Both the position numbers and the translations under genes were made by a program. From Alphaproteobacteria bacterium (lineage in GTDB: Bacteria > Pseudomonadota > Alphaproteobacteria > RF32 > CAG-239), in NCBI GenBank assembly GCA_045633825.1, contig JAZQZB010000039.1, positions 7,961-71,960 on the forward strand: a stretch of 64,000 bases of DNA, in the 5' to 3' direction. Numbering within the stretch: the stretch's first letter is position 1; each line of letters opens with the position of its first letter. This document shows, piece by piece, positions 1,656-3,130 of this stretch. The notes under the pieces are model-generated. The model saw nothing but the letters and a program-made list of their open reading frames with translations, made no database searches and was not told the origin of the DNA.

Positions 1656-2522
1656 ATGCAAAAGTTTTCATTTCATACTCATACAACAGGTTTTGACGGA
1701 CGTAATACAGAAGAAGAAATGATTCGTCGAGCAGGGGAACTCGGTTGGAATAAAATCGGATTTTCTAATCATTTGATGGTGCATGCAAGAATTACAGAGG
1801 CTCCGATGTTTCAATATGCTCAAAAAGGAGGATATAACGGTATTTATTCTTCGTCTTTTGATGAAGCTGTAGCAAAGTTTGAGCCTCATTATAAGCATAT
1901 TAATGAATTGCAAGAAAAAACCGATGTTAAAATTTTGAAAGGTATGGAGGTAGACTTTTTTGCTGATGAGAGGTGGCAAAGAGGTTTTGAAGATATGGTG
2001 AAATATCTTAAGCCTGATTATTTAATCGGTTCGGCTCATTTTGTTGATGTCGATGGTATTTTGTATAATTCGCATGATTTGAAAAATGCTTCAAAAATAA
2101 AACAGCAGCAATATCTTACCAAATATTGGCAAAATGTCAGAGCAACGGCAAAGTCGGGATATTTTACGTTTTTGGCACATTTGGATTTGATGAAAAAAGT
2201 CGGTTTGGGACAAGAAGAAACTTGGATAGAAGAAGAGAAAAAAACGGTTGATGTTATTCGAGATTCCGGTGTTATGGTAGAATTGAACACTTCTTATTTT
2301 AAGAAAGGGAATGAACCTTATCCGAGTAAAAGAATTATGAAAATGTTAGCTGATGCGGATGTGACGGTTTTGTTGAGTGATGATGCGCATGCAGCGAGTC
2401 AATTAGGTAATAATTTTGATAGAGCATATAATATGGCAAAAGAGTGTGGAATAAAAAATTTTTATAATGATAAAGCAATCAATAATTTTTTGTTACAAAA
2501 AAATAAAAATCGCGGTTTTTGA
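1656..2522 (+). CDS. PHP-domain phosphoesterase (histidinol-phosphatase-like family)
   Basis: N-terminal FHTHT... HxH metal motif and overall PHP-like composition; unusual neighbour of rplO (secY expected). Confidence 0.6.
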   Translation: MQKFSFHTHTTGFDGRNTEEEMIRRAGELGWNKIGFSNHLMVHARITEAPMFQYAQKGGYNGIYSSSFDEAVAKFEPHYKHINELQEKTDVKILKGMEVDFFADERWQRGFEDMVKYLKPDYLIGSAHFVDVDGILYNSHDLKNASKIKQQQYLTKYWQNVRATAKSGYFTFLAHLDLMKKVGLGQEETWIEEEKKTVDVIRDSGVMVELNTSYFKKGNEPYPSKRIMKMLADADVTVLLSDDAHAASQLGNNFDRAYNMAKECGIKNFYNDKAINNFLLQKNKNRGF

Positions 2523-2564
2523 TTTTTTTTATTTAAACTGTCATGCCTTGAGCGAGGAACTCTT
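2498..2564. repeat. Direct repeat copy 1 (aatcgcggtttttgatttttttt...tgtcatgccttgagcgagg), overlaps 3' end of the PHP gene
   Basis: About 50-bp near-identical copy found again at 2796-2856. Confidence 0.7.
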
Positions 2565-2795
2565 TTTCTCTTCCCTTAATTTTAAGGGAAGAAAGGATTT
2601 TTCGCAACTTCAGTTGCTTTAAAAATCCAGATGAGTTTAAATAAATTTTTTTTCTTTACGTTACTTTTGCTTGTCCAAAAGTAACCAAAAGACCCCGCTC
2701 AAGATGTTTTTTTATACGCTTTTTTACTCGGATGTGCCTTTCACTATCGTTGGCAGGCTTTTATCGTATAAAAGGAGAATCTCCTCGTAAAAAAG

Positions 2796-2856
2796 CTAAA
2801 AAACATAAATCGCGGTTTTTTGTTTTTTTATGTCATGCCTTGAGCGAGAAAGGACG
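2796..2856. repeat. Direct repeat copy 2 (aatcgcggttttttgttttttta-tgtcatgccttgagcgaga)
   Basis: Matches 2498-2564, so it looks like a duplicated gene 3' end or small repeat element in the intergenic region. Confidence 0.7.
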
Positions 2857-3004
2857 TTTTTATTTTTTTATCTAAAATATATTTACTTAATCTTAAAATT
2901 ATGGTAATATAAAGTATATATTAATCAAAATAAGGGGTTTAAGAAAATGTGTGAAACAATGCGTAATATCAAGGACGTAGGAAGTGTGAAAGTGGCGGAA
3001 ATCT

Positions 3005-3032
3005 ACACACACACACACACACACACACACAC
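3005..3032. repeat. (AC)14 dinucleotide microsatellite
   Basis: Perfect acacac... run of 28 bp, about 100 bp upstream of the CDS at 3131. Confidence 0.95.
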
Positions 3033-3075
3033 ATTTAAACTCTGCTAAGCATAATATAAACGAGATTAACATACA

Positions 3076-3115
3076 CCCAAAGGGATAATACCCCTTTGGG
3101 TGTTTTTGCTTTTGT
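3076..3115 (+). terminator. Hairpin plus T-run (acacccaaaggg...ccctttgggtgt ttttgctttt), terminator or attenuator-like, immediately upstream of the 3131 CDS
   Basis: 12-bp perfect stem followed by a T-rich tract; ends about 15 bp before the RBS aaggagaa. Confidence 0.55.
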
Positions 3116-3130
3116 ATAAGGAGAAGTGTC

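Follow-up and report, generated by a model that had tools for sequence, protein, structure and literature searches.

Control by a simple repeat placed within a leader-peptide gene was described for the pil1 and pil3 loci of Streptococcus gallolyticus, where GCAGA repeats are located inside the leader-peptide gene (Danne et al. 2014, PMC3894217). In pil1, the short frame stops 39 bp before the terminator and expression is low, while with out-of-frame changes the frame of the peptide extends into the hairpin or beyond it and expression is high (PMC3894217). The effect requires translation, and deletion of the terminator locks expression on (PMC3894217). pil1 isolates with a stop at least 28 nt upstream showed low expression, and isolates with a stop just upstream of the hairpin or with a frame running through it showed high expression (PMC3894217). 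A full-text literature search found repeat-in-leader-peptide attenuation experimentally dissected only in that study (PMC3894217), which covers two pilus loci of one Gram-positive species. A different type of control was described for hmw1A of Haemophilus influenzae, in which a heptamer repeat in the 5' untranslated region (5'-UTR) acts through an RNase III-processed hairpin with an effect graded with repeat length (PMC12721329).

Here, an intergenic region with an AC dinucleotide tract was analysed in a 64,000-nt stretch of DNA from an Alphaproteobacteria bacterium (contig JAZQZB010000039.1), hereafter the window. The region is fairly probably a phase-variable transcription attenuator with the repeat located in a leader open reading frame (ORF), and the allele of the window would be in the short, off or low, frame. 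Gain or loss of one repeat unit would probably switch the downstream gene on or off.

Leader ORF, AC tract and predicted terminator

The intergenic region (2523-3130, 608 nt) is located between a PHP/HisJ-family phosphatase gene (1656-2522) and an ORF of 349 aa (3131-4180), in agreement with a first-pass annotation of the same DNA that had described a gap of about 600 bp upstream of a basic-protein gene. The features found in and around it are listed in Table 1. Within TTTACTTAATcTTAAAAtTATGGTAaTAT (2882-2910), we infer a -35 hexamer, a 17-nt spacer and an extended -10 element from the sequence pattern. The promoter block TTTACTTAATnTTAAAAnTATGGTAnTAT was kept in all copies found, including one without a leader (L022), and its pattern was invariant across related loci. 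Transcription is predicted to start near 2917.

The first-pass annotation had overlooked a leader ORF (2947-3048) which contains the whole AC tract. This ORF links the tract with the terminator, as its reading frame would set whether ribosomes reach the hairpin. A GGAG or GGGG motif precedes the leader ATG by 8-9 nt in the window, L006, L010, L033 and L034 (L-numbers denote related loci or contigs and P-numbers called proteins or ORFs). The ORF was intact from ATG to tract in all six loci showing its start, and in L025 from the third base on, where the contig begins. At the DNA level, leader ORF and ribosome-binding site (RBS) were retained in the window, L006, L026, L010, L033 and both copies in L034.

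The AC repeat is perfect as first described, with a length of 29 nt, (AC)14 plus A, instead of 28 bp, and its distance to the ATG of the 349-aa gene is 97 nt, close to the earlier estimate of about 100 bp. A 16-mer of AC occurred in none of 100 shuffles and the tract is the sole dinucleotide array within 64 kb. With the predicted transcription start about 88 nt upstream of it, the tract is outside the promoter; of the two sites first suggested for a slipped-strand switch, promoter or leader, only the leader was retained. A repeat switch in the promoter spacer or upstream of the promoter was ruled out, since about 95 nt separate the conserved -10 (2905-2910) from the start of the tract downstream.

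The strong hairpin and T-run noted earlier before the RBS were also found. The hairpin (3073-3103) has 12 pairs, seven of them G-C, is followed by TTTTTGCTTTTG and showed a folding energy of -21.2 kcal/mol (z = -5.8). The stem was kept by compensatory changes, with 4 of the 12 pairs covarying among seven sequences.

For each tract length, the leader stop was located computationally in the window, L005-L007, L010 and L025-L027. With a tract of 23 or 29 nt the leader stop is located 12 nt after the tract, and with 27 or 33 nt it is located 2 nt after the tract. In both short frames (window tracts of 29 and 27 nt) a distance of 24 nt or more separates the stop from the hairpin; for the window allele, the distance from the first stop base (3046) to the start of the stem (3073) is 27 nt, and the other short frame of the window would stop at 3036-3038. 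With 25 or 31 nt, the ORF continues for 17-18 more codons across the 5' arm of the terminator and stops 52-55 nt past the tract; in every lineage examined, this stop was a TAA within the terminator loop. The loop stop was maintained although lineages differ by a 1-nt indel that alters the frame within the stem.

In the proposed mechanism, the mRNA from the promoter (about 2882-2910) would encode the leader peptide at its 5' end, with the terminator following the leader ORF and preceding the RBS of the 349-aa gene. As the repeat unit has 2 nt, slipped-strand gain or loss would cycle the leader ORF through its three frames. In the short frames (23/29 and 27/33 nt), the early stop would allow the terminator to form and most transcripts would stop at this point, which corresponds to an off or low state. 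With 25/31 nt, the third frame, ribosomes would cross the 5' arm of the hairpin up to the loop stop, the hairpin would not form and read-through would give the on state. Translation of the leader, termination at the hairpin, its override by ribosomes and frequent reversible switching are all read from the sequence and remain predictions. Of the two roles first suggested for the hairpin, the end of a small RNA (sRNA) or an attenuator, the frame of the leader ORF together with the terminator favours the attenuator, and a stand-alone sRNA is less likely.

Two GU-rich segments, AUGUGUG (2947-2953, including the leader start codon) and AGUGUG (2982-2987), were invariant in all module copies, and the AC tract is predicted to pair with them in sliding registers. 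Pairing of the tract flanks with each other was rejected, as it reached 5 bp at most and was broken in L024.

Table 1. Features of the intergenic region and the adjacent genes in the window
Feature	Position	Strand	Remarks
Direct repeat, copy 1	2498-2556	+	A/T hairpin around TCGCGG and GTCATGCCTTGAGCGAG; overlaps 3' end of PHP gene
Palindrome-rich filler	2557-2797	+	Like repetitive extragenic palindromic (REP) elements or miniature inverted-repeat transposable elements (MITEs); hairpins 2569-2592 and 2653-2692
Direct repeat, copy 2	2798-2848	+	Within conserved block upstream of promoter in other module copies
Predicted sigma-70 promoter	2882-2910	+	-35 TTTACT 2882-2887; 17-nt spacer; extended -10 TGGTAATAT 2902-2910
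Shine-Dalgarno-like AAGGGG	2932-2937	+	9 nt before leader ATG
Leader ORF	2947-3048	+	33 codons and stop, MCETMRNIKDVGSVKVAEIYTHTHTHTHTFKLC*; ATG 2947; TAA 3046-3048; short-frame allele
(AC)14A microsatellite	3005-3033	+	29 nt, 100% matches; codons alternate ACA (Thr) and CAC (His)
Third-frame extension	3034-3088	+	Open for 25/31-nt tracts; ...HLNSAKHNINEINIHPKG*; TAA in loop 3086-3088
Predicted intrinsic terminator (attenuator)	3073-3115	+	Stem-loop 3073-3103 and U-rich tail
RBS AAGGAG and controlled gene	3118-3123; 3131-4180	+	349 aa, isoelectric point (pI) 10.3, predicted all-helical, no known family
Terminator-like hairpin and T-run	4187-4218	+	Conserved 3' of 349-aa gene; compensatory changes in L006 and L010
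Two conserved small genes	4262-4660 (132 aa); 4677-4883 (68 aa)	+	Travel with 349-aa gene

Natural alleles, duplicated modules and alternative readings

The order of promoter, leader, tract and terminator was also found upstream of 349-aa homologues in L005-L008, L010 and L024-L027, contigs that were fetched via protein matches. AC length, which the first-pass annotation proposed to compare across isolates, differs between related genomes: the tract has 29 nt in the window, L006, L007 and L025, 27 nt in L026, 23 nt in L010, 33 nt in copy a of L034 and 7 nt in L033-L036. It was uninterrupted in every DNA copy; the called peptides P0043 and P0047 imply interrupted tracts. L006 and L026 are one AC unit apart (29 and 27 nt) and their 132-aa genes, located downstream of the 349-aa gene, are 98.5% identical in DNA, while third-codon identity in this gene between lineages is about 70%.

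A search of a collection of 5.8 billion proteins with a hypothetical long-frame peptide, the window sequence given a 31-nt tract, matched 25 called ORFs, of which at least 19, from metagenomes, are long-frame forms. These read MCE.MRNI....SVKVAEIYTH(TH)nLNSAK.NINEIN..PKG with n of 0-4, or 1-5 Thr-His pairs in total, and the tracts implied by the peptides have 7, 13, 19, 25 and 31 nt. The natural long-frame ORFs (P0032-P0050) have their end in the terminator loop or continue across the terminator (P0036, P0040 and P0041). A few short-frame forms were called thanks to upstream extensions, such as P0053 which ends in ...THTHTHTHTHI, and P0051 ends in ...FKLCQAQYKRD with the first stop lost as in L010. 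Since gene callers record only longer ORFs, this peptide sample is biased and shows the existence of the long frame and not its frequency. Overall, natural alleles were found in all three frames.

Two further variants were found. L022 retains the promoter and the RBS and has neither a leader ORF nor the tract or the terminator. In L010, CGA takes the place of the first stop, and the ORF continues to GAT TAA, which leaves 4-5 nt to the stem. These natural variants (L022 and L010/P0051) parallel the mutants described by Danne et al. (PMC3894217). A scan of Joint Genome Institute (JGI) metagenomes with a 21-base core pattern gave one chance match only, on a high-GC contig (L009), and a scan of viral contigs gave no matches.

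The module is not restricted to the 349-aa gene. Beside fliE, flgC and flgB, a 426-aa gene whose product has no similarity to the 349-aa protein is preceded by the leader P0049, with a 7-nt tract. The 85.6-kb contig that contains L034 has two module copies with unrelated genes downstream: copy a, with a 33-nt tract in short frame, is upstream of an unrelated 445-aa gene, and copy b, with a 7-nt tract in long frame, is upstream of the 426-aa gene. The two copies are 95% identical when the tract is ignored, and the module is 77-89% identical between lineages. The similarity spans from about 20 nt upstream of the -35 to the AAGGAG RBS and, in some copies, about 230 nt further upstream in a block that includes direct repeat 2 of the window. 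Upstream of the shared block, module copies adjoin different MITE-like palindromic elements. L033, L034 and L035 showed no mismatches over 3.6 kb downstream and have three different upstream junctions, produced either by recombination at repeats or by assembly chimerism. The upstream flanks of these three contigs hold ppx/ftsJ, topA with the second module, and pgk/gap, and diverge inside MITE-like repeats about 440-530 nt upstream of the leader ATG.

A tentative extension, which we regard as possible, is that promoter, leader ORF, (AC)n and terminator form a portable multi-copy cassette which always adjoins MITE-like repeats and is set before unrelated lineage-specific genes, each with its own three-state stochastic switch. 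If so, locked-on (7-nt), switchable (23-33 nt), stop-lost and leaderless forms would all exist in nature, and this clade of uncultured gut or rumen Alphaproteobacteria would have a modular contingency system movable between genes.

Several points weigh against the attenuator switch. Among the tract-bearing alleles found without the aid of the leader peptide (window, L006/7, L025, L026, L010 and copy a of L034) none is in the long frame, and the frame evidence for long alleles comes from a database of ORFs long enough to be called. The sole difference between close strains (29 and 27 nt) joins two frames that are both predicted to be off. As 7-nt tracts are not hypermutable, there are also copies in which the long ORF across the terminator is fixed. 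The tract flanks are conserved at the nucleotide level beyond the needs of the ORF, which hints at an added RNA-level role. The controlled products have no signal peptide or membrane segment, unlike typical products of contingency loci. In addition, 4 of the 11 leader-bearing contigs (L005, L027, L008 and L024) start in or at the tract; this speaks for the switch, but such breaks could reflect a multi-copy module and not heterogeneity of tract length.

The same 7-nt copies (L033-L036, in 24 contigs), which carry the long ORF as a stable state, and the conserved long-frame tail LNSAKHNINEIN are what a fixed translation-coupled attenuator of the pyrBI type would lead one to expect, in which a leader ORF crosses the terminator and read-through is set by the distance of the ribosomes behind the polymerase. 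The AC tract would then be neutral and expanded from an ancestral TAC-ACA-CAT (YTH), and short-frame alleles such as that of the window would be loss-of-expression mutations instead of part of an evolved switch. A decaying neutral repeat should gather interruptions; however, every DNA tract of 23-33 nt is uninterrupted, and such tracts recur in several lineages and in paralogues. The 29-nt short frame is also common to three separately assembled lineages despite about 30% third-codon divergence, and this reading is unlikely.

Conservation of the RNA itself could also be explained if the promoter-to-terminator unit (about 2917-3112, about 195 nt) were mainly a trans-acting small or dual-function RNA with the CA-repeat as a binding platform for a protein or RNA and with the downstream gene only loosely linked. 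Hardly any variation between lineages was present in the tract flanks GTGAAAGTGGCGGAAATCT and CTCTGCTAAGCA..ATATAAACGAGATTAAC, the folding of the unit is better than that of shuffled sequence (z = -5.0) and a terminated RNA would be the main product of short-frame alleles. Such an RNA is nevertheless quite unlikely: each copy of the unit shares its strand with a gene and is no more than about 30 nt away from the RBS of that gene, leader ORF and RBS are maintained in all DNA copies, L022 keeps the gene promoter without the RNA, and no Rfam match was found for the unit.

In a third alternative, tract length would work through mRNA structure as in hmw1A, with AC pairing to AUGUGUG and AGUGUG and a graded tuning of leader translation or RNA stability. 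This has a published precedent in H. influenzae (PMC12721329), and in the predicted fold both GU segments, which are invariant in the alignment, pair with the tract (-20.6 kcal/mol, z = -2.8). As all pairs are invariant they give no covariation support, however, and the GU segments are equally conserved in the 7-nt copies, where little pairing is possible. The frame that stays open to the terminator loop in every lineage would also be left unexplained, and control through structure is very unlikely.

Finally, a classical his/thr-type attenuator, in which ribosomes stalled at Thr or His codons alter terminator formation, has in its favour five Thr and four His codons in the leader ORF upstream of the terminator and a HisJ-family phosphatase gene immediately upstream, but was rejected as highly improbable because no antiterminator was found (post-tract RNA with the 5' arm of the terminator gave -3.6 kcal/mol, z = -0.36), the number of Thr-His pairs varies from 1 to 5.5 among alleles with codons strictly ACA and CAC, the controlled genes are mutually unrelated orphans that are not biosynthetic, the 349-aa protein having a single His, and other module copies are not beside the PHP gene. 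Overall, the pyrBI-like, sRNA and hmw1A-like alternatives account for less of the evidence than a phase-variable attenuator does.

Flanking repeats, controlled gene and genomic setting

The two direct repeats of about 50 bp reported by the first-pass annotation, the first at the 3' end of the PHP gene, were both recovered. 2498-2529 and 2798-2829 match at 88% over 32 nt, and 2539-2556 and 2831-2848 at 100% over 18 nt; the 17-mer GTCATGCCTTGAGCGAG has a chance expectation of 0.04. Copy 1 is like the end of a MITE and overlaps the last codons of the PHP gene (1656-2522); the C-terminal codons of this gene come from the repeat element. The copy-1 element was also present at the end of the homologous PHP gene in L010. 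The short palindromes noted earlier were present in the filler (Table 1) and at 2497-2529 and 2798-2828, and the window part 2650-2800 is common to the module copy in L033/L034. The direct repeats of the window are therefore pieces of a repeat patchwork around the module. Dispersed copies of the upstream repeats or of the module elsewhere in the 64-kb window were sought and not found. Nested short palindromic elements with ends of the GTCAT(G/T)CC...GGAATGAC type were observed in the window (2540-2707), L010 (3040-3500) and L022 (1500-1800), and their copy number at the same site differs between relatives. The start of every module copy directly follows one such element end.

The 349-aa protein contains one His only and has few homologues, with three found by word search and 10 representatives in an exhaustive profile search of 1.8 billion proteins. 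It is 41-47% identical between lineages, compared to 86-87% for the neighbouring 132-aa protein, and many metagenome contigs (L014-L016, L018 and L028) break inside its gene or just upstream. The fast divergence and the contig breaks suggest diversifying selection or recombination, and the fast evolution of the controlled gene also speaks for the proposed switch. AlphaFold produced a low-confidence all-helical model of the 349-aa protein, with a predicted local distance difference test (pLDDT) score of 53, and a good model of the 132-aa protein (pLDDT 86), which showed no fold match in the PDB at E ≤ 0.001. The proteins of 349, 132, 68, 426 and 445 aa had no credible family assignment in Pfam, NCBIfam, PHROGs or PADLOC.

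Since a conserved hairpin follows the 349-aa gene, control by the switch is probably confined largely to this gene. The 132- and 68-aa genes accompany the 349-aa gene also in a clade that has the cassette elsewhere and without an AC leader. In this related clade (P0026, 75% identity), the three-gene cassette is located between lptF/G and a gene of the pyridoxal-phosphate-dependent enzyme (PALP) family, beside two tRNA genes (L011 2720-3660 and L012 3040-3990). Its flanks in L011/L012 are direct repeats of about 85 nt with a partial tRNA 3' end, which resemble att sites.

The G+C content of the whole window is 34%. It opens with genes for ribosomal proteins S5, L30 and L15, followed by the PHP/HisJ-family phosphatase gene; in 1090-2522 the ribosomal operon stops at L15 and the PHP/HisJ-family gene is present instead of secY and adk. 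The closest relatives of the PHP protein are from metagenome-assembled genomes (MAGs) labelled as uncultured Alphaproteobacteria of animal gut or rumen. A genome scan with this protein gave four MAG loci with a downstream context common to none, and exact look-ups of the PHP and 349-aa proteins of the window matched no record. In addition, 23-nt tandem repeats were observed in three intergenic arrays (53908-53975, 57024-57090 and 59299-59384) with 2.3-3.7 copies and differing consensus sequences, which could be iteron-like or regulator-binding arrays. With Rfam 15 at the gathering threshold, a tRNA at 41313 was the only match in the window, and at a permissive threshold the matches within 2400-3200 were all far below cut-off and none was relevant.

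Comparison with known systems

The pyrBI operon of Escherichia coli senses UTP through polymerase pausing and has no hypermutable repeat. Long-frame alleles of the module are similar to it in having a leader ORF that spans the terminator, so translating ribosomes can block the hairpin, whereas the window allele stops well short of the terminator. The his, thr and trp attenuators share with the window a short leader ORF with a run of codons, here His/Thr, upstream of a terminator; in the module, however, no antiterminator was found, the codon count varies and the downstream genes are not biosynthetic.

In the opa genes of Neisseria, CTCTT repeats are located inside the coding region and the controlled genes are homologous to one another. 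As with opa, paralogous copies of a conserved repeat-bearing 5' module could switch their own genes independently; in contrast, the opa repeats are in the protein's own coding region and the genes of the module are unrelated. Both hmw1A and the window have a transcribed simple repeat in the 5' leader which can pair with a complementary purine/GU-rich segment, and in both the repeat acts on expression after transcription starts, as proposed for the window, but hmw1A involves neither a leader ORF nor terminator logic.

A second, unrelated case would show that repeat-in-leader attenuation evolved more than once. If confirmed, the locus would also provide a signature to search for in metagenomes, a repeat in a small upstream ORF whose alternative frame crosses a terminator, and would single out a set of orphan proteins that evolve fast and probably matter in the contact with host or phage. 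What would be new is the Gram-negative uncultured gut host, the dinucleotide repeat and a module copied before different genes.

The closest similarity was with pil1 and pil3. Like them, the window has a promoter, a leader ORF that is preceded by an RBS and encloses a simple repeat completely, and an intrinsic terminator ahead of the first gene. In both, the repeat unit is not a multiple of three, the short-frame stop is about 25-40 nt upstream of the hairpin and an out-of-frame change extends the ORF into or through the hairpin, with the effect on expression known for pil1/pil3 only. Relatives of the window also match the S. gallolyticus isolates in having forms whose stop falls shortly before the hairpin and others with no functional terminator, and more than one locus per genome is under such control, as proposed for the module. 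The differences are an AC dinucleotide instead of a GCAGA pentanucleotide, with only one of the two shifted frames being long, a different peptide and host phylum, no sequence homology, the absence of pil genes from the controlled set and the duplication of the module before unrelated genes. Overall, by analogy of structure, the window locus has every structural feature of the pil1/pil3 type and is regarded as its analogue, not its homologue.

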